Below are positions 3,437 through 63,597 of a DNA stretch of 64,000 nucleotides, piece by piece. The stretch lies in the UHGV virus genome UHGV-0054069; one strand, given 5' to 3'. This DNA comes from a virus. The notes beneath the pieces were generated by a model that was given only the letters and a program-made list of their open reading frames with translations, was not told the DNA's origin and ran no database searches. A program made the translations under genes and the position numbers. Within the stretch, counting starts at the first letter, position 1. Every line of letters starts with the position of its first letter.

Positions 3437-3477
3437 AAGCCCCAGATAAAGAGCTTTCCTAAACTGGAGTTTTCACA

Positions 3478-3624
3478 ATGTCAAATATAGTTGAAATGGT
3501 TTTTAATAATCCGGTATTCTCAGAGATGATTTTCTCGTTTATCATGATGTTACTTGTTAAAACCATGAAAAAAGCCGAAAAATTACACTCAAAGAAAAAA
3601 GCTATTGCAAACCGTTTTAAGTAA
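3478..3624 (+). CDS. small hydrophobic protein (48 aa), absent from ORF track
   Basis: ATG 3478 preceded by leader CCTAAACTGGAG (3458-3469); in-frame to TAA 3622-3624; MSNIVEMVFNNPVFSEMIFSFIMMLLVKTMKK... Confidence 0.4.
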   Translation: MSNIVEMVFNNPVFSEMIFSFIMMLLVKTMKKAEKLHSKKKAIANRFK

Positions 3625-3633
3625 AGATATAGT
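3605..3633 (+). promoter_or_regulatory. sigma70-like promoter (TTGCAA-N17-TATAGT)
   Basis: overlaps 3' end of small ORF 3478..3624. Confidence 0.5.
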
Positions 3634-3671
3634 ATCAATCAAGCCCACTTCCTAAACTGGAGAATCTGAAA

Positions 3672-4013
3672 ATGGCATACGTAACAATCATCACTGATAA
3701 AGAAAATTCCTCATGGTCTACACAAGTAAGCGATAGAATGTCGCCTATGCAATGCCTAAAATACTTTGAGCAATGGAACAAGGGGGAAGATGTAAGCCCT
3801 TTCCAAGTGATGCAAATTGTACACGTTGATAATGACGGTAACAAAACAACACTAAACAGCGAATACTATGCAACACGCTTTGAAACAAAAGCTAACATGA
3901 TGAAAGCATTACGTGAAAAAGGTTATAGTCACATAGCGGGGTTAATATGGAGTGACTTACTAAAATCACAGAGATTAACCTATGTCAAGACAGAAAAAAT
4001 CTTTATAAGCTAA
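3672..4013 (+). CDS. hypothetical early protein
   Basis: ORF with conserved leader (3645-3656). Confidence 0.6.
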   Translation: MAYVTIITDKENSSWSTQVSDRMSPMQCLKYFEQWNKGEDVSPFQVMQIVHVDNDGNKTTLNSEYYATRFETKANMMKALREKGYSHIAGLIWSDLLKSQRLTYVKTEKIFIS

Positions 4014-4141
4014 TCAATGACTTACAAAATTCTTTGAAAAAACTGTTGACAATACCCCTTGACATTGATAGATTTGTTCGAGGGGGTTTATCTAAAAGGG
4101 ATTCACTTAAAAGATTCTTTATAGATAAGCGTAAAAAGTAC

Positions 4142-43561: not shown

Positions 43562-45937
43562 ATGGCTGAATATAAGCTAAGTGAGCTAAACAGTATTGAC
43601 ACAGTTCGCTCAGAAGATTTACTTCACCTAAGAATTATCAAAAGGTCTGATATGCTAGGTGATGAAGACCGTAAAATGACCTATGCAAATTTCCTTGCCT
43701 CTTTCAAACTAGAAAGATTCTTACAACTAACTGGTGGGGATATGACAGGGAATCTTGGCATCGTCAAATTAAGATACGGTGGAAAAGACTTATTAGACCC
43801 AACAGGTTCTTCTGAGGTTATTCTCGGTGACACTGCCAAGACCTTTAGAATTAATGCGAGTGCTTTAAGATTAACTGTAAACGATGCCACAAGGTCTGCA
43901 ACAGTTTATCACACACTTAATAAACCATCTCCTAATGAATTAGGTATGAGAACTAATACTGAAAATGATGCAAGATATGCTATGAAGGAAACTGAAAATA
44001 CTTTCTTGGCAAGACAAATCATTAATATCAACGGTGTTGGTCTAACACTTAAAAGTATCTTACCAGATGGTGGAGCATATATTGAAGCAAGGGACTCAAA
44101 TAATGCTTTGAGATTCACAGTTGGTAACTTGACTTCTGGTACTGATGTTACATTAGTTAATAGTAAGGGTGCTACGTTGACTCTTGGCACAAACTCTGTT
44201 AGTGTTGATAAGAATTTTGAAATCAATGGACAGGTTCAGCCTAATAACTGGAATAACCTTGATGCAAGATTCTTTACACAAACTGCTGCTGACCAGAGAT
44301 TTGCAAAACTTAATGCAAGTAATAACTTTGTTGGGGTTAACAACTTCAATGGTAAGACTTATGTTATTGCAGATAGTAATGCACTTAACTTAAGAGCGGT
44401 TACAGAGAATGCTGCATTATTTATGCGTGGTTATAACAGTGCTGGGACAGGAACTTGGTATGTAGGTCAACCAGATGGTACGCAGTCTGAGATTGTTTTA
44501 GCAAACCAGATGACAAATGTTAACTTGAAAATTGCTACAGAGTTTTCATTTAACAAAGCTATCAATGTAGCTGGTCAGGTAAAACCAAGTGACTTTTCTA
44601 ACTTTGATACAAGATATGTTCCAAGCTCTTTGACGAACGTTCTTGCAAGAACTAATGCTGCAAACGTTTTTACTAGTCCACAGACTATCAATACTGACAG
44701 CGACAATCCTTTTAGACTACAGGCAACAGTACAAGACTCTGGAATCTACATGTCTGCACATAATGCTAATGGGGGCAGGAGATGGTGGTTGGGTATTGGT
44801 GATGCTGGTCAAAACAATGTGGTACTTAACAATGATGTAACAGGAAAGGCAATCAATATTGGTACTGATTTAGATGTGAATACACATGTGAATATTGTTG
44901 GACAAGTAAGACCAAGCGATTGGTCAAACTTTGACTCAAGATACTACACACAATCTGCTTCAAACTCAAGATATATGTTGTCTGGTGTATCTGGAACGGG
45001 AACAGAAGTTGGTGATACAACAGGTATTGCTTGGAATTCAAAAACAGGTTTGTACAGTGTTACAAATTCAACTGGTGGGTCTACTCACTTAGTTTACCAA
45101 ATGTACCTTGGAGTTGGTGCATCTACACCGACTGCACAGTTTAAATTTAACTACAAGAATACTGGAATCTATTATAGAACAGCAAGGGATGGATTTGGTT
45201 TTGAAGAGGTTTGGGCTAAAATCTACACAGACCAAGACAAACCTACACCCTCTGAACTTGGTGCTTACACCAAGGCTGAAGTAGACCAACGTATTGCTTC
45301 CGCTGTAACTGATGCTACAGACCTTAAGAAAGTGTATCCAGTTGGTATTGTGACGTTCTTTGCTTCTAATGTCAACCCAAATACAGCTTTCCCAGGCACT
45401 ACTTGGACTTACTTAACTGAGGGTGCAAACAGAACTATTAGGATTGGTTCTGAAAATGGCTCTGATGTGAAAGGTCTTGGTGGTGCTGATACGGTTGCAT
45501 TAAGTGTTGGTCACATCCCTGCACACACTCACGGCTTCTCTGGGACAACTTCTTGGTTTGACTATGGAACTAAGTACACAGATGGTCAGGGTGCTCACGA
45601 CCATGACAGAGGTAATATGGAAATCTCTGGTAACTTTGGATGGTTTAGAAGTGATAATAACTCGTTCTACGTTGCAGACGGTGCTTTTGCAATGAGTGGT
45701 AGCCAAGGTGGGCATAGCTGGACAGGTTCTAACTTCACTTATGGTGCGCCAGTTAACTTCTATGCTTCCAGAACTTGGACAGGTAGAACAAGTTGGGGAG
45801 GTGCTCATGCTCACGGTGTAGGCATTGGTGGACACAACCACACATTCAGTGGTGACACTGGTGCAACTGGTTCTGGTGCAGCATTCAGTGTTCTTAACAC
45901 TTACATTAAACTAATGGCTTGGGTAAGAACTGCATAA
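43562..45937 (+). CDS. long tail fibre protein with internal repeats and C-terminal HxH motifs
   Basis: three ~90-aa repeats (V.P..W.N.D.R); C-terminal AHTHGF, AHDHD, AHAHGV, HNHTF; ends ..AWVRTA like the preceding fibre. Confidence 0.6.
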   Translation: MAEYKLSELNSIDTVRSEDLLHLRIIKRSDMLGDEDRKMTYANFLASFKLERFLQLTGGDMTGNLGIVKLRYGGKDLLDPTGSSEVILGDTAKTFRINASALRLTVNDATRSATVYHTLNKPSPNELGMRTNTENDARYAMKETENTFLARQIININGVGLTLKSILPDGGAYIEARDSNNALRFTVGNLTSGTDVTLVNSKGATLTLGTNSVSVDKNFEINGQVQPNNWNNLDARFFTQTAADQRFAKLNASNNFVGVNNFNGKTYVIADSNALNLRAVTENAALFMRGYNSAGTGTWYVGQPDGTQSEIVLANQMTNVNLKIATEFSFNKAINVAGQVKPSDFSNFDTRYVPSSLTNVLARTNAANVFTSPQTINTDSDNPFRLQATVQDSGIYMSAHNANGGRRWWLGIGDAGQNNVVLNNDVTGKAINIGTDLDVNTHVNIVGQVRPSDWSNFDSRYYTQSASNSRYMLSGVSGTGTEVGDTTGIAWNSKTGLYSVTNSTGGSTHLVYQMYLGVGASTPTAQFKFNYKNTGIYYRTARDGFGFEEVWAKIYTDQDKPTPSELGAYTKAEVDQRIASAVTDATDLKKVYPVGIVTFFASNVNPNTAFPGTTWTYLTEGANRTIRIGSENGSDVKGLGGADTVALSVGHIPAHTHGFSGTTSWFDYGTKYTDGQGAHDHDRGNMEISGNFGWFRSDNNSFYVADGAFAMSGSQGGHSWTGSNFTYGAPVNFYASRTWTGRTSWGGAHAHGVGIGGHNHTFSGDTGATGSGAAFSVLNTYIKLMAWVRTA

Positions 45938-46023: not shown

Positions 46024-46218
46024 ATGCCAACCATTCTAGCAATCCTCTTGAAAAATCTTGGGGCATTCTTCTGGAAGCTTCTACTTTCTCTTCTTAGCGA
46101 ATACATGATTGAAAAAGTGTTCTTCAAGCTTGCAAGATACCTTGCGAGTAAAACAGACACACCTATTGATGATGAATTTGTAGATACCTTGGAAAAGGCT
46201 TTTAAGGGTGAAAAATAA
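46024..46218 (+). CDS. small hydrophobic protein (holin-like candidate)
   Basis: 64 aa, N-terminal hydrophobic helix TILAILLKNLGAFFWKLLLSLL. Confidence 0.35.
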   Translation: MPTILAILLKNLGAFFWKLLLSLLSEYMIEKVFFKLARYLASKTDTPIDDEFVDTLEKAFKGEK

Positions 46219-46592
46219 TGAAGTGGATTGAAGAGGCTTTTAAGAACAACATTGGTGCAATTGTTGTAGGTATTTTCAGTGTAATTGGTATGTACACTAC
46301 GATGCAGGTCTCTGATGGAAAGCAAGAAGTTTCTATCAACACAAAGTTACAACAGTTGGATGGTTACTCAAAAGGTAACTATTCAGCTATTCGTGATTTA
46401 CAGTCTGATATGAAACTCCTTCAGTTAGGGATGGAAAACCAGAAAGTGCAGTTAGAGAACGTTAAAGGTGAAAACGCTAAGTTGACCAAAACCCTTGATA
46501 AATTCTCAGATAGTGTGAACAACTTAGCACAGTCTGTATCAGCTTTACAAGCAATTACCGAACAAAATACACAGAATGCTAAAAAGAAATAA
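46218..46592 (+). CDS. membrane-anchored coiled-coil protein (i-spanin-like candidate)
   Basis: N-terminal TM (IGAIVVGIFSVIGMY) then coiled-coil-like region. Confidence 0.35.
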   Translation: MKWIEEAFKNNIGAIVVGIFSVIGMYTTMQVSDGKQEVSINTKLQQLDGYSKGNYSAIRDLQSDMKLLQLGMENQKVQLENVKGENAKLTKTLDKFSDSVNNLAQSVSALQAITEQNTQNAKKK

Positions 46593-46596
46593 TGCT

Positions 46597-46626
46597 AAGG
46601 CTCCCGTAAAAAGGAGCCTTTTTTGT
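46597..46626. terminator. bidirectional rho-independent terminator
   Basis: GGCTCC-CGTAAAAA-GGAGCC flanked by A-run and T-run; between convergent genes. Confidence 0.7.
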
Positions 46627-46628
46627 AT

Positions 46629-47528
46629 CTACTTACCTACTGACAAGGGAGCTTCAATCTTACCAGCATGTCGGTAATCTTTCAAGCCACCTATAAAGTC
46701 ACTTGCTGTTAAGTGTTTCAGGTCATCAATACTGTTTAACTCAACATCAATCTCAAATTTAGGTGCTGGGTAATCTTCGTTACCTAACAACTGATAAACT
46801 TGCTGCATATGGTTCAGGTAAATCTGGGTATCACCAAAAGTACCAACAAGATAACGTGGAGTTAAACCTGTCATCTTACAAAGCACATGTAGGATAAACC
46901 CATAAGATGCAATGTTAAAGGGCAAACCTAAAAATGTGTCGCATGAACGCTGATACCATTTCAAGTCAACCTCTCCAGTATTCGAGATATAAATCTGGAA
47001 AAGTACATGACAAGGGGCTAATGCCATAGAGTTGCTTGAGATATCTGCTGCATTCCATGCGTTAACCAGCATGTAACGGTCTGTAGGAGACTTTTTCATC
47101 TTATCCACAAGATTACTCAACTGGTCAACGACAACCCCACCATGCCCCTCAAAAGCCCTCCATTGGACACCATAGATTCGTCCACCTGCATCTTCCAACC
47201 AATCATTTTCAGTTGCATAGGTTGTCTTTAACCAACGTTCAAAATCATCTGTCCAGATAGTCCAACGCTCTCCATCGTTCTCTCCCCAAGTTCTGTAACG
47301 TAAATCACCCAACTTGTTTTCACCATTCAAAAACCACAATGCTTCACCGATAACTTGACGCATAAAGGTTTGCTTTGAAGTGATTAACGGGAAACCACTA
47401 CGCATATCAAAACGAAATTCTGGAGGTGCAAACGTTGTAACAACCTTTCCAGTTCTTGTTTTACGTTCTTCCCCAACAGAAAGAACATGGTTGAGAATCC
47501 CTTTGTAACTTATATCTGCTTGTGACAT
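46629..47528 (-). CDS. thyA: thymidylate synthase (ThyA family)
   Basis: ALAPCH active-site Cys motif and QRSCDTFLGLPFNIASY; Asn in PFNIAS as in canonical ThyA. Confidence 0.85.
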   Translation of the reverse strand: MSQADISYKGILNHVLSVGEERKTRTGKVVTTFAPPEFRFDMRSGFPLITSKQTFMRQVIGEALWFLNGENKLGDLRYRTWGENDGERWTIWTDDFERWLKTTYATENDWLEDAGGRIYGVQWRAFEGHGGVVVDQLSNLVDKMKKSPTDRYMLVNAWNAADISSNSMALAPCHVLFQIYISNTGEVDLKWYQRSCDTFLGLPFNIASYGFILHVLCKMTGLTPRYLVGTFGDTQIYLNHMQQVYQLLGNEDYPAPKFEIDVELNSIDDLKHLTASDFIGGLKDYRHAGKIEAPLSVGK

Positions 47529-47529
47529 A

Positions 47530-48075
47530 TTAGAAACGTCCTCTTACTTGTGGAACATAAATGTTGAATACAACGCTGTCATCTTTCGATGGTTTTGACT
47601 GTATTCTAGCAAAAGTTGACTCATCATACAAGTACTCAAAGAAACCCTTATAAGGCAGCTTCACAGTTGCTTCTTCAGTCACTTCACGGATATATGTTTG
47701 ACAAATTGCATCTGCATATGGTAAAGCTTTGATAAGAATACCTGCTCCACCAATTATACAAACATCTTGCTCAATACTACTATCCAGATGTTTTAAGAAT
47801 GCCCCAAAAGCGTCTGGGTGAACCTTAGCAAACATTACATCTTCTCTACCAAAATCTATACCTTCATACGGTAATGAGTTTGTCAGAACAAGATTATCAC
47901 GGTCTGGTAAAGGTTTACTTCCAAGACTCTTGAAAGTGTCATTACCCATAACTACCAATTGACCTGTAGTAATCTTCTTGAACTCTTGCATATCTTGCTT
48001 ATTACGAGGCCAAGGCATACCAGAGGGGCAACCAAACTCCCCGTTAAGACCGTTTGCAAAAACCAATTTAATCAT
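47530..48075 (-). CDS. folA: dihydrofolate reductase
   Basis: GMPWP..QLVVMG..T..S motifs typical of DHFR; adjacent to thyA. Confidence 0.8.
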   Translation of the reverse strand: MIKLVFANGLNGEFGCPSGMPWPRNKQDMQEFKKITTGQLVVMGNDTFKSLGSKPLPDRDNLVLTNSLPYEGIDFGREDVMFAKVHPDAFGAFLKHLDSSIEQDVCIIGGAGILIKALPYADAICQTYIREVTEEATVKLPYKGFFEYLYDESTFARIQSKPSKDDSVVFNIYVPQVRGRF

Positions 48076-48344
48076 TGTGTGAACCCTTTTACAATAAACC
48101 AGTTAGCAATATTCTTCACAGTTTTTACTGGATGGAATACTAAGCGTGGTTGTGGTTGATAACTGCCATAAGCCCAGAAAGAGATGATGTTGTCACAATC
48201 AGTGCAACGTGTGTACTCTTCTGCTACGTTCCCTGCCACAATCTCTGTAATCTCACCTTGGAAATTTGTACCCCCACAATGGGGGCATTTTAGAGGTTCA
48301 CCATCTTGGTTGTAGCATTGCTCAAACTTCTCAAAAAGTTTCAT
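48072..48344 (-). CDS. zinc-ribbon protein
   Basis: CPHCG..CTDCD Cys pairs. Confidence 0.5.
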   Translation of the reverse strand: MKLFEKFEQCYNQDGEPLKCPHCGGTNFQGEITEIVAGNVAEEYTRCTDCDNIISFWAYGSYQPQPRLVFHPVKTVKNIANWFIVKGFTQ

Positions 48345-50013: not shown

Positions 50014-50209
50014 CCTTCTTCCTCCGTTTACGCGAAGTGTCTATTAAGGAATCTATACTGGTTGCTCTTACATTCTCACGAGTCCCGTTGACGAAGTGGT
50101 CTAGAGCCTCTACAACTGTATTAAAATCCTTAGCCCAAACTCTGTAAATAACTACTCCATCGTCGTCAACAACTTCACCATAGTCGATTCTACAGATGTT
50201 CTTTTTCAT
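50006..50209 (-). CDS. hypothetical small protein
   Basis: ORF. Confidence 0.45.
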   Translation of the reverse strand: MKKNICRIDYGEVVDDDGVVIYRVWAKDFNTVVEALDHFVNGTRENVRATSIDSLIDTSRKRRKKDE

Positions 50210-50586
50210 TGTGGCAGACCCATGCAGTGACGGTTGATGATAAAGTACTCAAACCCATCTAAAACAGACTGTGTAACACGTTCTTCTACAGCTTTAGTTT
50301 CAGAAATCTGTTCAGAACTTAGCACATCAATATTCTCAGAAACCATCATATCAGCCACATCGTTGTAGTAACCACCCATAGTGTGGTAGATGAGGTCAGT
50401 TGTACGGTCTGTCATTTCCTGAAAAGTTTCTTGAGTGATTGGTTTAGTTAACTCTCCAGACTTAGAAACAATCTTTTGAGAAAGCTCACAAGACTCCAGT
50501 TTAACTTTACCGTAGTCCACATTTGGCATTACTGCATAAGCATTGAAGCTTAGTGCTGCAAAGAGACATAGTGCAATCTTTTTCAT
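50206..50586 (-). CDS. secreted protein with signal peptide
   Basis: start set at MKKIALCLFAALSFNAYA (GGAGG RBS); cleavable signal-like N-terminus. Confidence 0.5.
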   Translation of the reverse strand: MKKIALCLFAALSFNAYAVMPNVDYGKVKLESCELSQKIVSKSGELTKPITQETFQEMTDRTTDLIYHTMGGYYNDVADMMVSENIDVLSSEQISETKAVEERVTQSVLDGFEYFIINRHCMGLPQ

Positions 50587-50743
50587 AATTACCTCCAAAC
50601 TAACTAGTGGGTTCCTATATAATATCTTGTATATTGCTAGTATACCCACTAAGAATCTCATGTCAACAACTTTCTACATGTATAACCAAGAGAAAAATAA
50701 GATACCGATAATCACTACTGCAATTGCAATCCCCATAGTGTAA

Positions 50744-51844
50744 TCACTCATAATCTCTAATAACAAGCCCAACAGGGAACTGTAAAGACCCCTTACGAGT
50801 CATCTTCTGGAACTGAACCGTCAGAGGTTTACCGATAAACTCTTCAGGATGTTCAGCAAGATACTTCTTCTTCTCATGGGTAGTTTTCCATGAAACATCT
50901 ACAAAGATGTTAGGAAGAGTCTCTACAACGAACTTACCATGCCCCCGCTTATCAGTCTTCACACCAGTAACTTTAAACTCCTCTGTGTGCATCTTCTTGT
51001 GTTTAATCAGGAAGTATGAACGGTGACCACACTCATAGAAGGATTCTGGGGAGATTGAACGGTACATTGCCCCTTCAAACTTCAGCTTAACCCAATTATC
51101 ATGTGCTTTGTCGAACTCTTCCCAAGAATTAACACGGATAGTCTGTACAGGAACAACCCTGCAAGCTTCACCAAGTTCAACAAGAGGTGAATTGTCAATA
51201 ACTTCACGACGCTCAGGCCAAGACTTGGTATTATCACAGATATCATACCAGTAGAACTTAAGAAGGTGACGGTCTGGATTGTCAGTATTCTTAATCATGG
51301 ATACAATATCCTCTAAGTCCCAACCATGAGCGTAAATCTCACCATCAAAATCTTCAACTTGTGGGTGACACTTCAGCATTAGTAACAAATCTGGGATTAG
51401 CTCTGCTGGTACATTATAAACAGTGTTTTCACGAGAATAAGCCGTGAAGCTTACTGTATCAACATCTCTTGAAATCCTGCAACGAACACCATCAAGTTTA
51501 GGTTGAGCGTCAGCAGGGAAATTCAGGTATTTTGCGTGACTAATCTTTACAGCATCGTGAGCAAGCTGTACACCAACCTTTTCAACGTTCTCTGCTTCAG
51601 ACTTTGTGTAAGCATAACCTTTACGGTCTACTTGCTTCTTGTACTTTGCAGAAACTTCAAAGAGAGCTTGCTGTTCAGCGTTACGCTCATTCTTTTTACC
51701 GATGTTCTTCGGTTCTGCTGTGTACTCTTCAAACATCATTTTGCCGTTCTCTTTACCGTAAGTGGTAACCACCTTGTCACCTACAGCAACACACGACCAA
51801 ACGTTAAAGGAACCATCTTTGTTTTGTTTGTACAGAATTGTCAT
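50744..51844 (-). CDS. lig: ATP-dependent DNA ligase
   Basis: motif I PKLDGVR (KxDGxR). Confidence 0.8.
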   Translation of the reverse strand: MTILYKQNKDGSFNVWSCVAVGDKVVTTYGKENGKMMFEEYTAEPKNIGKKNERNAEQQALFEVSAKYKKQVDRKGYAYTKSEAENVEKVGVQLAHDAVKISHAKYLNFPADAQPKLDGVRCRISRDVDTVSFTAYSRENTVYNVPAELIPDLLLMLKCHPQVEDFDGEIYAHGWDLEDIVSMIKNTDNPDRHLLKFYWYDICDNTKSWPERREVIDNSPLVELGEACRVVPVQTIRVNSWEEFDKAHDNWVKLKFEGAMYRSISPESFYECGHRSYFLIKHKKMHTEEFKVTGVKTDKRGHGKFVVETLPNIFVDVSWKTTHEKKKYLAEHPEEFIGKPLTVQFQKMTRKGSLQFPVGLVIRDYE

Positions 51845-52379
51845 TTGTCTTTCTCTCCCACACCTTTTTTAATTTTTCAACAGAAACAATGTTTCCAGAT
51901 TGAGTCATCGCATTTCCAGACAAAGAGAAGAAACTCTCTGGGAATGGTAATTCTAACTTAGAATAAAAATCATAGTAAGAACCACCTGACTCTCTGTATG
52001 CAATCTTCAGACTACCATTATGTCTATACGAAAATAAGACAAGAGAACCGTCTGGGTATTTTAAGCATTTTCCAAATTGTTTCTTGTACAAGTAGTCAGC
52101 AAAATCAATGTATAAATCCTTTAAATACTCAGAGACATTCTCAACTTGTCTTACACCGAGATTTTTGCAAATATGTTCGTATTTTAGATAATCAAACCTA
52201 TATGGTGTTGCTCCAGTTTCATGTAAGAATTTTAGTACAGCGAGTTTTACAGGTTGATACATTAATGGGTTTGAGTATTGCCTTTTCTTCTCTTGATACC
52301 AAGGTATTGAGTAGCTTTGATAGGCCATTCTCAGGTTACTGTAAGACTCTCTAAATCTATCCTCTTCACTCATTTTCAT
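51804..52379 (-). CDS. hypothetical protein
   Basis: ORF. Confidence 0.5.
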   Translation of the reverse strand: MKMSEEDRFRESYSNLRMAYQSYSIPWYQEKKRQYSNPLMYQPVKLAVLKFLHETGATPYRFDYLKYEHICKNLGVRQVENVSEYLKDLYIDFADYLYKKQFGKCLKYPDGSLVLFSYRHNGSLKIAYRESGGSYYDFYSKLELPFPESFFSLSGNAMTQSGNIVSVEKLKKVWERKTNDNSVQTKQRWFL

Positions 52380-57692: not shown

Positions 57693-57750
57693 TACAATTG
57701 TTTCCCCAAAGCCTCCTTAATTGGGGGCTTTTTATTATGAGAGGTATATT

Positions 57751-58488
57751 ATGAAGAGTATTATTGCATTCACTGGTAAGGCACGTTCTGGTAAAGACAC
57801 TTCCTGCACCATCGTTAAGAACCACTTGATTGAAGAAGGCTACGCTGTTAAAGTCTTTGCGTTCGCAGATAATCTTAAAGCAACTGCTGGAGATATCTTT
57901 GACTTAGATTGGCAAGACTTGTATGGTGACACCAAAGAGAAACCTCAGAAATTTGACTTAACTTTCTCAAATGTGCATAGTAACGTTAAATATTCTTTCT
58001 TCAGACACTTGAAAGATAAAGGTATACATAATGATGAGAAACTTTGTGGTGAAATCACAGACAGACTTATCAAAGAACTGAAGAAGGTTGCTAAACCGAC
58101 TCTCTTAACAAGGATGGGTTTCAGGAATGAATACATCTTCTCTTCACGACAAATCCAACAAGTTTGGGGTAGTGAGGTTATTCGTAAAATCCTTGGGGAG
58201 CGTTTCTGGATTATTGACCTTGCAGAAAGAATGGAAAAGTTTTATGGTGAAATAGAAAGAAAAGGCCACATTCCAGTAATCCTAATTTGTGATTTGAGGT
58301 TTGATATTGAAGCGGAATTTCTCAAGAGCTATAATAGTCAAATCATCGAAGTGACCAGAAATGGTATTGAGCAGGTTGCTTCACATCATTCTGAAAAAGG
58401 TATCTCTCCACGATTCGAAAGAGATTTTATTCAGAATAACGGAACAATAGATGAGCTTGCAGATAAATTGAAAGTCATCATAAAATAG
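57751..58488 (+). CDS. deoxynucleoside monophosphate kinase
   Basis: start at MKSIIAF; P-loop FTGKARSGKDT, N-terminus matches T4 gp1-type dNMP kinase. Confidence 0.7.
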   Translation: MKSIIAFTGKARSGKDTSCTIVKNHLIEEGYAVKVFAFADNLKATAGDIFDLDWQDLYGDTKEKPQKFDLTFSNVHSNVKYSFFRHLKDKGIHNDEKLCGEITDRLIKELKKVAKPTLLTRMGFRNEYIFSSRQIQQVWGSEVIRKILGERFWIIDLAERMEKFYGEIERKGHIPVILICDLRFDIEAEFLKSYNSQIIEVTRNGIEQVASHHSEKGISPRFERDFIQNNGTIDELADKLKVIIK

Positions 58489-62066: not shown

Positions 62067-63107
62067 ATGAATCAATATACACTTACAAAGCTCCCAGAAA
62101 GCGTTACACACGTCTTTATTGACGCAGACAGCATTGCTTACAAGGGTGCTTGTGTAGTTGAAAAAGCAAAGTACAAGTATGTGAATAGACTTACCGCTGA
62201 AGAGTCTGATGACTTTGATAGTGCTAAGTTAGCTTCACAATGGTTAGCTGACCAGAGAGTTCTTACAGAGGAACTTGGACTTGACTTTGATGAAGATGAA
62301 TGGGAAAGACAGACTTGGAAGGAAGCCAAGAGCGAAAAAGAAGCTATTATGGCGACTCAGCAGGTTCTTCAAGAATGGCTTAAAGTTGTCGGTAAAGAGC
62401 GTCAATGGATGGGTTACCTGACTGAGAAGGGTGTTCACAAACACAAAGACATTAAAGGTCTTGAACATCAATATCAAGGTAACAGGAAAGATGCGGTGAC
62501 ACCTACGCACCTAGTTGCTTGTCGTGAGTATCTTCTGTCACGAACTGAGTTTAAGCTTCTCAAAGGTGGCTTTGAAGCTGACTCAATCGTTATTGCAAAA
62601 GCTGAAAAGATGGGTAAAAAAGCTGCTCTTATGAGTATTGATAAAGACCTTCGTCAAGCTGAAGGGACATATTGTATTGATATGACTTATGAGAAAGCAC
62701 CACTTATCTTTATTGCTGATAATAACGTTGGAGAGATTTGGGATTGCCCTATCAAATCCAAACCAAAAGCTAAGAAGACAGTCGGAGTAGGCTTCAAATT
62801 CCTCTGCTATCAAGCTGTAGCAGGTGATAATGCAGATAACTACTTTGGCCTTAAGGGTGCTGGTAAAGTTGCTGTAATGAACGCTCTGGAAGGTAAAACA
62901 ACCTACAGAGAATGTTTAGATGCTGTTTATGAGTTGTATGCAAAGAAAGACTCTTACACCTATGTGTCGTGGGACGGTCAAACAATTACCAGAACACCTT
63001 TAGAGTTAATGCACCAGCACTTCTGGATTGCATACCAAGAGCGAAATCCAAAGGATGATTTCACGTTTGAAAAATATGGATGGGAGCCTACTATGAATGA
63101 AGATTAA
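62067..63107 (+). CDS. 5'-3' exonuclease / flap endonuclease (T7 gp6-like)
   Basis: start at MNQYTLT (GGAGGG RBS); acidic clusters FIDADSIAYKGA, SIDKDLRQAEG, GDNADNYFGLKGAGKV. Confidence 0.65.
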   Translation: MNQYTLTKLPESVTHVFIDADSIAYKGACVVEKAKYKYVNRLTAEESDDFDSAKLASQWLADQRVLTEELGLDFDEDEWERQTWKEAKSEKEAIMATQQVLQEWLKVVGKERQWMGYLTEKGVHKHKDIKGLEHQYQGNRKDAVTPTHLVACREYLLSRTEFKLLKGGFEADSIVIAKAEKMGKKAALMSIDKDLRQAEGTYCIDMTYEKAPLIFIADNNVGEIWDCPIKSKPKAKKTVGVGFKFLCYQAVAGDNADNYFGLKGAGKVAVMNALEGKTTYRECLDAVYELYAKKDSYTYVSWDGQTITRTPLELMHQHFWIAYQERNPKDDFTFEKYGWEPTMNED

Positions 63108-63597
63108 AGGTTTCGGTAATTGCCCTGTTTATGGTCATTGGGTATCTTTATGCGGGGAAGTTGACCCAGCTAAACTGTTCGGGTTTGTCTACCTAGTCTA
63201 TTGTAAGAAAACTGGACAGTATTACATTGGTAAAAAGCAGTTCAATAGTATCACTAAGAAGAAGGTTGCTGGAAAGACCAGACGTAAGGTTGTCACCAAA
63301 GAGAGTGACTGGATGGTTTACCAGACTTCTTCTGAGTACATTAAGAAAGATATTGAAGCTTTTGGTATGAAAGAGTTTGACTTCTACATTGTGCAAACCT
63401 ATTATACACGAGGTGGGTTAGTCTATGGAGAAGCAAATCTCCAACATAAGTTCGATGTTATGACAAAAAGGATTGACTCGAAACTCAGACTCTTCTACAA
63501 TGCCAATATTGCAGCTATCAAGTTCCTTACAAAAGAAACTTATGAAGAAGCTGAGAAACGTATTAACAAAATCATGAAACTTAATGAGAGAGAATAA
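63097..63597 (+). CDS. GIY-YIG-like nuclease (candidate)
   Basis: FVYLVYCKKTGQYYIGKK followed by Arg/Glu-containing region. Confidence 0.4.
   Translation: MKIKGFGNCPVYGHWVSLCGEVDPAKLFGFVYLVYCKKTGQYYIGKKQFNSITKKKVAGKTRRKVVTKESDWMVYQTSSEYIKKDIEAFGMKEFDFYIVQTYYTRGGLVYGEANLQHKFDVMTKRIDSKLRLFYNANIAAIKFLTKETYEEAEKRINKIMKLNERE

Follow-up and report, generated by a model that had tools for sequence, protein, structure and literature searches.

The ThyA superfamily takes in the thymidylate synthase (TS) of Escherichia coli, ThyA (EC 2.1.1.45), and phage enzymes that hydroxymethylate dUMP or dCMP. Position 177 (E. coli numbering) is an experimentally established pyrimidine-specificity switch in these proteins (PMC8670742; PMC6400193). 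Asn or Asp at this position corresponds to a uracil or a cytosine target, respectively, but the residue does not split methylation from hydroxymethylation. A published signature at the third residue before the catalytic Cys consists of Asp in hydroxymethylases and Leu in TS, and the D145N mutation in T4 dCH abolishes hydroxymethylation (PMC6400193). The C-terminal tail of the E. coli enzyme seals the active site for hydride transfer, and dCH is without this tail (PMC6400193). The pairing of a TS gene with a dihydrofolate reductase (DHFR) gene is a further mark of a true TS, because only TS yields dihydrofolate (PMC4528723; PMC6400193). The T4 dCMP hydroxymethylase gp42 shares the superfamily and the catalytic Cys and Tyr with the protein described here, but differs in having the cytosine-specific Asp179, Asp145 at −3 from the Cys, no C-terminal tail and a length of 246 aa. 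The dUMP hydroxymethylases, represented by SPO1 gp29 and its PaMx11/M6-like and ViI-like homologues, have in common with it the superfamily fold, the catalytic Cys, Glu58, Tyr94, Arg166, Asp169 and Asn177. The closest described systems, however, are the td/frd genes of Felix O1-like phages, namely ESh22/ESh21, Citrobacter phage Moogle (gp52-gp53), Salmonella phage UAB_Phi87 and Felix O1 itself, whose genome paper described both genes as DHFR and TS (PMC3185647). Hundreds of related phages carry an annotated frd-td pair.

The window, which is the whole 64,000-nucleotide stretch of DNA that was analysed, comes from a Mooglevirus (Felix O1-like, Ounavirinae) phage and is 96.5% identical at this locus to Shigella phage ESh22. 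Its ThyA-family protein is 98.3% identical to that of ESh22 and 88% to that of Moogle. The Felix O1-like relatives have genes of equal length (181 and 299 aa) in the same order, with the same convergent holin/tail-fibre neighbours and terminator position, and depart from the window only by strain-level sequence divergence. DHFR and thyA were found in identical order in all 20 listed of the 245 matching related phage records, and the locus is therefore not a chance feature. We consider it very probable that a Mooglevirus/Felix O1-like phage here carries an ordinary frd-td module (DHFR and thymidylate synthase), which encodes a genuine TS and goes together with ordinary thymine.

The layout also resembles that of T4, in which the DHFR gene is directly 5′ of the TS gene on one strand with stop and start abutting or overlapping. 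In the window, the DHFR stop codon TAA (47532-47530) is separated by a 1-nt gap from the thyA ATG (47528-47526). An earlier note on this DNA had placed DHFR immediately downstream of the ThyA-family gene; the adjacency holds, but since both are encoded on the minus strand, DHFR is upstream of thyA in transcription and downstream only in plus-strand coordinates. T4-like features in the DHFR include the sequences MIKLVF and IGG..L..ALPYAD, and T4 Td shares with the TS of the window an insertion after Trp80 and the lack of Trp83. T4 differs in having a group I intron in td and the separate dCMP hydroxymethylase gp42, while the window has neither an intron nor a second ThyA-family gene. T4 Td also retains Arg127, His207 and the canonical MAV C-terminus. 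The stop of a small upstream ORF overlaps the DHFR start, which shows that DHFR and thyA come last in a compact leftward operon of early/middle genes, DNA polymerase and ligase genes among them. The terminator hairpin sits between thyA and a convergent late gene (46218-46592, plus strand), and the operon ends there (Table 1). The phage genome has a G+C content of 39%. A scan for sigma-70-like promoters returned 13 sites against 13.3 expected by chance, and with no excess over chance we claim no promoter for the operon.

Table 1. Coordinates of genes, signals and active-site features at the DHFR-thyA locus
Feature	Position	Strand	Evidence and remarks
thyA/td, ThyA-type thymidylate synthase, 299 aa	46629..47528	−	ORF; PF00303; TIGR03284; phrog_160; AF2 model
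frd/folA-like, type I dihydrofolate reductase, 181 aa	47530..48075	−	ORF; PF00186; phrog_316; directly 5′ of thyA
thyA Shine-Dalgarno AGAGGA	47539..47544	−	Sequence reading; within 3′ end of DHFR gene
Bidirectional intrinsic terminator, G+C-rich hairpin	46597..46620	both	T-runs on both strands; found on both
90-aa Zn-ribbon ORF	48072..48344	−	phrog_2993, function unknown; stop overlaps DHFR start (ATGA)
Asn205 codon AAC (= E. coli Asn177, uracil-specifying), in LGLPFNIASY	46914..46916	−	Alignment; invariant in 27 homologues
L170-A-P-C173	47010..47021	−	Alignment; catalytic Cys 47010-47012; Leu at −3, 47019-47021
C-terminal tail I291-E-A-P-L-S-V297-G-K299	46632..46658	−	= E. coli I258...I264 + 2-residue extension
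Tyr152 codon, in place of E. coli Arg127 (second dimer-interface phosphate-binding Arg)	47073..47075	−	Alignment; clade-wide

The earlier note had recognized a ThyA-family protein with Asn in a PFNIAS motif, and the ORF was recovered at exactly the coordinates in Table 1, with Asn205 as the residue concerned. The protein matches PF00303 over its full length (2-266 of 266, E 1.3e-74, 251 bits, far above the Pfam gathering cut-off) and phrog_160 at 6e-97. It scores 215.9 bits against the NCBIfam TS equivalog TIGR03284, above the cut-off of 108.35. The TS controls also pass at 202-455 bits (E. coli ThyA 455, T4 Td 299.7), while all six hydroxymethylase-type controls fail at 30.6-59.2 bits (SPO1 gp29 58.2, PaMx11-like 58.2, ViI-like 34.0, T4 gp42 30.6, JL gp159 43.4, AB434P2 59.2). 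Identity is 36% to E. coli ThyA and about 38% to T4 Td. An AF2 model, built from an input alignment without the E. coli sequence, has a pLDDT of 93.1 and a pTM of 0.92. The 50 best Foldseek matches of this model in the PDB are all TS, and it superimposes on E. coli TS with a TM score of 0.93-0.94 and an rmsd of 2.1 Å. The fold, the catalytic Cys-His, Glu58, Tyr94, Arg21/126/166, Asp169, Asn177, Tyr209 and the C-terminal tail are all shared with the E. coli enzyme, from which the protein differs by the insertion after Trp80, here about 20 residues long.

The alignment with E. coli ThyA places each active-site residue: R25 (R21), E62 (E58), W92 (W80), Y119 (Y94), R151 (R126), C173 (C146), H174 (H147), Q193 (Q165), R194 (R166), S195 (S167), D197 (D169), N205 (N177) and Y237 (Y209). 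C173, H174, E62, Y119, D197 and Y237 are all invariant across 27-28 homologues, and the essential phosphate-binding Arg set is present as R25, R194 and R151 (R21, R166 and R126′). Leu170, at −3 from the catalytic Cys, is in the TS state, this position being Asp in all six hydroxymethylase-type proteins, and His174 and Gln193 are likewise in the TS state. In the tail, I291, A293, L295, S296 and V297 correspond to E. coli I258, A260, V262, A263 and I264. The comparison that the earlier note had proposed, an active-site alignment with ThyA and with dCMP and dUMP hydroxymethylases, thus puts the protein of the window in the TS state.

The neighbouring gene is an intact DHFR by the same kinds of evidence. 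Its product matches PF00186 with an E value of 1.7e-23 and 83.5 bits (gathering cut-off 25) and phrog_316 at 8e-50, and among the best 60 of its 116 PDB matches all are DHFR. Conserved residues (E. coli numbering) are W22, D27, F31, K32, T46, L54, R57, G95-G96 and T113, among them the catalytic Asp27, the folate-binding Phe31, Leu54 and Arg57, and the NADPH-binding Gly95-Gly96 and Thr46. Arg44 and Tyr100 are replaced by Asn and Leu, against Ala and Leu in T4 Frd. The DHFR gene has a dN/dS of 0.23-0.27 against ESh22 and Moogle. Taken with Leu170, His174, Gln193, the intact tail and the TIGR03284 score, this intact coupled DHFR bears out the earlier reading of the protein as a genuine thymidylate synthase.

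The analysis shows which genes these are, the states of their active sites, the fold, the synteny, the selection and the absence of detectable modification genes, and the products and the physiological role of the two enzymes are inferred. ThyA would convert dUMP and 5,10-methylene-tetrahydrofolate into dTMP and dihydrofolate by reductive methylation. The co-translated DHFR would then return dihydrofolate to tetrahydrofolate with NADPH, and the one-carbon unit would be reloaded by the serine hydroxymethyltransferase of the host. Together with the ribonucleotide reductases and the dNMP kinase of the phage, the pair may supply more dTTP for replication of a genome containing ordinary thymine. 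The PhageMaP paper on phage Bas63 makes no mention of thymidylate synthase or DHFR essentiality.

The protein does depart from canonical TS at several positions, with Arg127 replaced by Tyr, His207 by Gln and Trp83 by Asp, and with an extra C-terminal Gly-Lys (G298-K299). The fourth phosphate-binding Arg (R127′) is accordingly missing, its place being taken by Tyr152. In canonical TS, the free carboxylate of the terminal hydrophobic residue helps active-site closure. Tyr127, Asp83 and the C-terminal sequence APL[S/L]VG are common to about 68 of the best 120 homologue clusters, the most distant of these at 42% identity, with position 127 across this phage sub-clade being Tyr and rarely Asp, Gly or Asn, and with the chain always extending at least one Gly beyond the canonical terminal residue. 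The Ounavirinae enzyme belongs to this conserved phage ThyA sub-clade, and Tyr127, Asp83 and the Gly extension could alter active-site closure, a proposal that we regard as very unlikely. If it were true, the enzyme might differ in its kinetics or half-of-sites behaviour, respond differently to antifolates or be leaky to water and, in the extreme case, release some 5-hmdUMP alongside dTMP. Linkage to DHFR is not universal in this sub-clade, since a marine contig with a distant member has, at the DHFR position, a 190-aa ORF without similarity to DHFR; in one metagenomic contig with a distant member, DHFR lies 1 kb from thyA.

The same three departures at highly conserved TS positions, with the extended and possibly blocked C-terminus, could also be read as marks of a decaying or catalytically impaired TS relic in a phage that depends on host ThyA. 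We find this highly doubtful. The thyA gene has a dN/dS of 0.05-0.09 against ESh22 and Moogle, which indicates strong purifying selection, and 36 active-site and core positions are invariant in an alignment of 28 sequences, E. coli ThyA among them. The departures are themselves conserved in the clusters described above, which argues for a stable functional sub-clade and not for decay. Structures of R179A, R179K, R179T and R179E mutant TS are present among the PDB matches, and T4 Td, a proven TS, has Asn at position 83 and likewise no Trp. Replacement mutants of Lactobacillus casei Arg179, the equivalent of E. coli Arg127, reportedly keep activity, and this highly conserved but reportedly non-essential Arg is not counted here as a defining feature of TS.

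A different reading takes the ThyA homologue for a dUMP hydroxymethylase of the SPO1 gp29 type, through which 5-hydroxymethyl-dUTP would enter the phage DNA and leave it hmU-modified or hypermodified. The earlier note had held that hydroxymethylases usually carry Asp in place of the Asn. This is right for the dCMP type, as in T4 gp42, but wrong for the dUMP type, where SPO1 gp29 and its homologues in hmU-hypermodifying phages (PaMx11-like, ViI-like and Bacillus phage JL) all have Asn. Because dUMP hydroxymethylases keep Asn177, Asn alone excludes only a dCMP-type enzyme and not an hmU pathway. Ruling out hmU-type modification instead takes the −3 residue, the residues at 147 and 165, the state of the C-terminal tail and the genomic company of the gene, that is, whether it is partnered by DHFR or by 5-HMUDK, dCMP deaminase or dTTPase genes. 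Two further points fit the dUMP hydroxymethylase reading: the C-terminus runs two residues beyond the canonical end, and the phage encodes a dNMP kinase (PF21448) while relatives carry a MazG/PRA-PH-like pyrophosphatase, enzyme classes that also occur in hmU pathways (PMC8989533). Against it, the dUMP hydroxymethylases (SPO1 gp29, JL gp159, PaMx11-like and ViI-like) have Asp at −3 from the Cys, Asn at +1 and Asn165, where the protein of the window has Leu, His and Gln, and the gp29 type has GANxxxF in place of the intact LPFNIASY. The gp29-type proteins are 346-406 aa long with a long C-terminal helical extension (382-407 aa for dUMP hydroxymethylases in the literature; PMC4528723), whereas the protein of the window has 299 aa and a TS-type tail. 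It is only 19-25% identical to the dUMP hydroxymethylase types, and their 34-58 bits against TIGR03284 compare with its 216. A tblastn search with SPO1 gp29 gave no Ounavirinae among the best 60 of 1330 records. The gp29-type genes adjoin genes for 5-HMUDK, aGPT-Pplase, dCMP deaminase and HD or dUTPase proteins and have no DHFR, and none of these features is found in the window; an enzyme that releases tetrahydrofolate would have no use for an intact DHFR next door. The reading is therefore very improbable, and it was rejected because of the signature residues and the HMM scores and also because of protein length and genomic context.

The genomic company was searched by tblastn with 25 queries from the hmU/hmC loci of PaMx11-like, ViI-like, SPO1 and T4 phages, with the ThyA of the window as control, against the window, 43 kb of ESh22 and the whole Moogle genome (E<0.1). 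Only the ThyA locus itself, one per genome, and a weak P-loop match to the dNMP kinase were returned. In these three targets there were no proteins of the 5-HMUDK/aGPT-Pplase clusters, dCMP deaminases, dTTPase or dUTPase homologues, T4 dCTPase, beta-glucosyltransferase or Dam, at a BLAST-level sensitivity that can overlook modification genes of high divergence in the numerous hypothetical ORFs, and with about 24 kb of the phage genome beyond the window judged through relatives alone. The Moogle annotation has no modification gene among its entries. The earlier view that the locus gives no sign of a hydroxymethyl-pyrimidine pathway thus stands.

A dCMP-directed hydroxymethylase or methylase making modified cytosine has practically no chance of being correct. 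Only the shared ThyA fold speaks for it; such enzymes are common in phages (PMC8670742). Asn205 in place of Asp, Leu170, the presence of the tail, His147 and Gln165 where T4 gp42 and the AB434P2 enzyme have Thr and Met, and the failure of tblastn to detect a glucosyltransferase or dCTPase in the window, ESh22 and Moogle led us to reject it, and the sequence in effect refutes it already. The result is mainly a negative one, with which the locus drops out as a candidate DNA-modification system of the window. Simple hmU blocks few restriction enzymes. In the sister genera, from which the supporting restriction and RM evidence comes, EcoRV and SpeI both cut the DNA of the Felixounavirus UAB_Phi87, and an in-silico digest served to identify the SpeI fragments (PMC4837284).

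The ORF listing, Pfam and PHROGs matches and a motif with Asn205 bear out the two genes that the earlier note placed at 46629-48075, and together they are a textbook phage dihydrofolate reductase (DHFR)-thymidylate synthase (TS) module. Over the 3 kb around the locus, identity is 96.5% with Shigella phages ESh22 and ESh21 (Ounavirinae, Mooglevirus) and 79-85% with other Moogle/Felix O1-like phages; G+C content in the window is 35-43%. The locus is matched by 245 phage records, and in the best 20 of these "thymidylate synthase" and "dihydrofolate reductase" are annotated beneath the match. The module is not new, as its annotation exists in hundreds of relatives, and these genes were so described already in the Felix O1 genome paper (PMC3185647).

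Features of the DHFR-thyA locus and its surroundings (replaced residues and position 83 in E. coli ThyA numbering)
Feature	Position	Strand	Details
Tail fibre protein	43562-45937	+	791 aa; convergent late gene
Holin-like gene	46218-46592	+	Convergent late gene
G+C-rich hairpin	46597-46620	both	T-runs on both strands; 8 nt beyond thyA stop; faces convergent late genes
thyA	46629-47528	-	299 aa; Pfam Thymidylat_synt, E 1.3e-74, full length; phrog_160 (TS)
Gly298-Lys299	46632-46637	-	Two residues past usual C-terminal residue of canonical TS
Asn205	46914-46916	-	Motif LGLPFNIASY
Tyr152	47073-47075	-	For Arg127 of canonical TS
Asp95	47244-47246	-	At position 83; differs from canonical TS
Gln235		-	For His207 of canonical TS
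DHFR gene	47530-48075	-	181 aa; Pfam DHFR_1, E 1.7e-23; phrog_316 (DHFR)
Zn-ribbon ORF	48072-48344	-	90 aa; CxxC...CxxC; directly upstream of DHFR, 4-nt overlap with its start; phrog_2993 (unknown function)

The preference of ThyA homologues for uracil or cytosine is set by position 177 (PMC8670742). The comparators, described as verified or accepted enzymes, were E. coli ThyA, spliced T4 Td, T4 gp42 (dCMP hydroxymethylase, dCH), SPO1 gp29 (dUMP hydroxymethylase), Bacillus phage JL gp159, and the ThyA homologues adjoining thymidine-hypermodification clusters in two phages, one a PaMx11-like phage of Pseudomonas and the other a ViI-like phage of Salmonella. Once these are aligned, position 177 is Asn in every dUMP-type hydroxymethylase and Asp in dCMP-type enzymes only. 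Because dUMP-type hydroxymethylases also carry Asn, this residue rules out hmC-type but not hmU-type chemistry, and by itself Asn177 would be no proof of a TS. The criterion of the earlier note, Asn in place of Asp, therefore excludes the former chemistry only; its conclusion of a genuine TS with no sign of hydroxymethyl-pyrimidine modification stands, but needs further discriminators. A 220-aa protein of Agathobaculum phage AB434P2 (OP172633.1; L017:1399-2061) is annotated "deoxyuridylate hydroxymethyltransferase" but shares Asp177, Thr147 and Met165 with T4 gp42. This hydroxymethylase appears to be directed at dCMP, not dUMP, so the annotation is probably wrong.

The hydroxymethylation signature described for the T4 dCH ternary complex is an Asp at position -3 from the catalytic Cys, where TS has Leu, and the D145N mutation in T4 dCH abolishes 5hm-dCMP formation (PMC6400193). 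In the active-site alignment with ThyA and both hydroxymethylase types, a check that the earlier note had proposed, Asp occupies this position in all six hydroxymethylase-type proteins, and Leu in the window ThyA (L170-A-P-C173), Moogle TS, E. coli ThyA and T4 Td. The window ThyA is likewise in the TS state at position 147, directly after the catalytic Cys (His; Asn/Thr in hydroxymethylases), and at position 165 (Gln; Asn/Met in hydroxymethylases). Position 147 was among the top two discriminating positions in the MetaGPA study (PMC8670742). E. coli TS has a C-terminal tail that closes off the folate site so that hydride can be transferred, while dCH has no tail (PMC6400193); the window ThyA retains it (I291-E-A-P-L-S-V297). 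Its length of 299 aa compares with 346-406 aa for the dUMP hydroxymethylase types (comparators; see also PMC4528723). The NCBIfam equivalog TIGR03284 (cut-off 108.35 bits) cleanly splits the two classes: the window ThyA (215.9 bits), E. coli ThyA (455), T4 Td (299.7) and three distant members of the sub-clade discussed below (202-227) pass, and SPO1 gp29 and the PaMx11-like protein (58.2 each), AB434P2 (59.2), JL gp159 (43.4), the ViI-like protein (34.0) and T4 gp42 (30.6) fail. The window ThyA shares 36-38% local identity with E. coli ThyA and T4 Td, versus 19-28% over shorter stretches with hydroxymethylases. An AlphaFold2 model (27 homologues; mean pLDDT 93.1, pTM 0.92) has thymidylate synthases as all of its best 50 PDB matches, with a TM of 0.93-0.94 and an rmsd of 2.1 Å to E. 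coli TS.

The partner gene and genomic company agree with a true TS. Dihydrofolate is a product of the reductive TS reaction only, so a true TS is expected to have a coupled DHFR, which hmU phages lack (PMC4528723; PMC6400193). The window DHFR retains Trp22, Asp27, Phe31, Lys32, Thr46, Leu54, Arg57, Gly95-Gly96 and Thr113 (E. coli numbering), shares its deviations with T4 Frd (Arg44 not conserved; Leu for Tyr100), and has only DHFRs among the PDB matches listed. Purifying selection acts on both genes (dN/dS against ESh22 and Moogle of 0.05-0.09 for thyA and 0.23-0.27 for DHFR). A single ThyA-family locus is present in the window, in the complete genome of Moogle and in the 43 kb of ESh22 that were compared, and tblastn (E<0.1) over the same three gave no match to PaMx11-type hypermodification-cluster proteins, ViI-type neighbours, SPO1 dCMP deaminase or gp22.1, or T4 dCTPase, beta-glucosyltransferase or Dam. 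No modification enzyme appears in the curated annotation of Moogle, which does include ribonucleotide reductases, glutaredoxin, dNMP kinase, a MazG/PRA-PH-like pyrophosphatase, NAMPT and PRPP synthetase. As for sister genera, EcoRV and SpeI both cut the DNA of UAB_Phi87, with SpeI fragments identified via in-silico digest (PMC4837284), and Bas63 is described as "remarkably sensitive" to several restriction-modification systems. Together with the Felix O1 gene descriptions, these reports lend the ordinary reading indirect experimental support.

From family knowledge, Cys173 would attack dUMP at C6, and CH2-H4folate would pass its methylene to C5. The C-terminal tail would then close the site and exclude water, permitting hydride transfer from folate C6 and yielding dTMP and dihydrofolate. 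DHFR would regenerate tetrahydrofolate with NADPH, host SHMT would reload the one-carbon unit, and the phage dNMP kinase (57721-58488) and host NDP kinase would complete the route to dTTP. Extra dTTP capacity plausibly benefits an A+T-rich phage genome (~39% G+C) in a ~50% G+C host.

The sole mildly novel angle of the locus is the TS sub-clade to which its ThyA belongs, in which no biochemically characterised member is apparent. Tyr127 (rarely Asp, Gly or Asn), Asp83 and an "...APL[S/L]VG" end with at least one extra Gly recur in about 68 of the 120 best homologue clusters, all phage or metagenome sequences with identity down to 42%. The oddities of the window ThyA are thus conserved sub-clade traits, not decay. 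A bacterial 279-aa group retains Arg127 and "...MAV", and His207Gln is limited to the closest Ounavirinae. It is very improbable that these changes alter the reaction product. T4 Td, a proven TS, likewise lacks Trp at position 83, and the Arg127 equivalent of L. casei, Arg179, tolerates replacement; R179A/K/T/E mutant structures exist in the PDB. In a distant member (marine metagenome contig L011, ERZ17173245), a 190-aa ORF (3457-4029) overlaps the thyA start, the position of DHFR here. Its product has no Pfam match and resembles neither the window DHFR nor T4 Frd to any detectable degree; a PRA-PH/MazG-like gene and one for a dNMP kinase lie nearby.

DHFR had been placed immediately downstream of thyA; the adjacency holds, but on the coding strand DHFR lies upstream. 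A single nucleotide separates its TAA stop (47532-47530) from the thyA ATG (47528), which has a Shine-Dalgarno AGAGGA 10 nt upstream. Given the abutting genes, the hairpin past thyA and the convergent late genes, DHFR and thyA are the end of a leftward operon that also holds DNA polymerase and ligase genes. T4 likewise has frd then td, with stop and start overlapping, and Moogle and UAB_Phi87 share this gene arrangement. The best sigma-70-like site of the region (50639-50666, minus strand; TTGACA-16-TATACT, 11/12) may be a promoter of the leftward genes ending in DHFR-thyA; the total sigma-70-like count in the scan was not above chance. The site covers the point at which a 151-aa ORF (50206-50661, minus strand) is annotated to begin; the real start of this ORF may be an internal Met, where a signal-peptide-like stretch begins (MKKIALCLFAALSFNAYA). 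The Zn-ribbon ORF weakly matches the Lar restriction-alleviation family, below the Pfam threshold (E 0.0035; 18 bits versus a cut-off of 28.6). No Pfam match was obtained for the 191-aa ORF that separates the genes for ligase and DNA polymerase (51804-52379, minus strand), and only several short ORFs are annotated in the corresponding stretch of ESh22. His-x-His motifs recur near the C-terminus of the tail fibre (HTHGFSG, HAHGVGIGGHNHTFSG) and recall the metal-binding motifs of other phage fibres. Elsewhere in the window, 24 tRNA genes cluster at 17514-22600, all on the plus strand, as is typical of Felix O1-like phages (21 are annotated in Moogle). A SegE-like GIY-YIG homing endonuclease ORF (63097-63597, plus strand; PF19835, E 5.8e-27) adjoins the exonuclease gene; at about this place ESh22 has an annotated HNH-motif protein.
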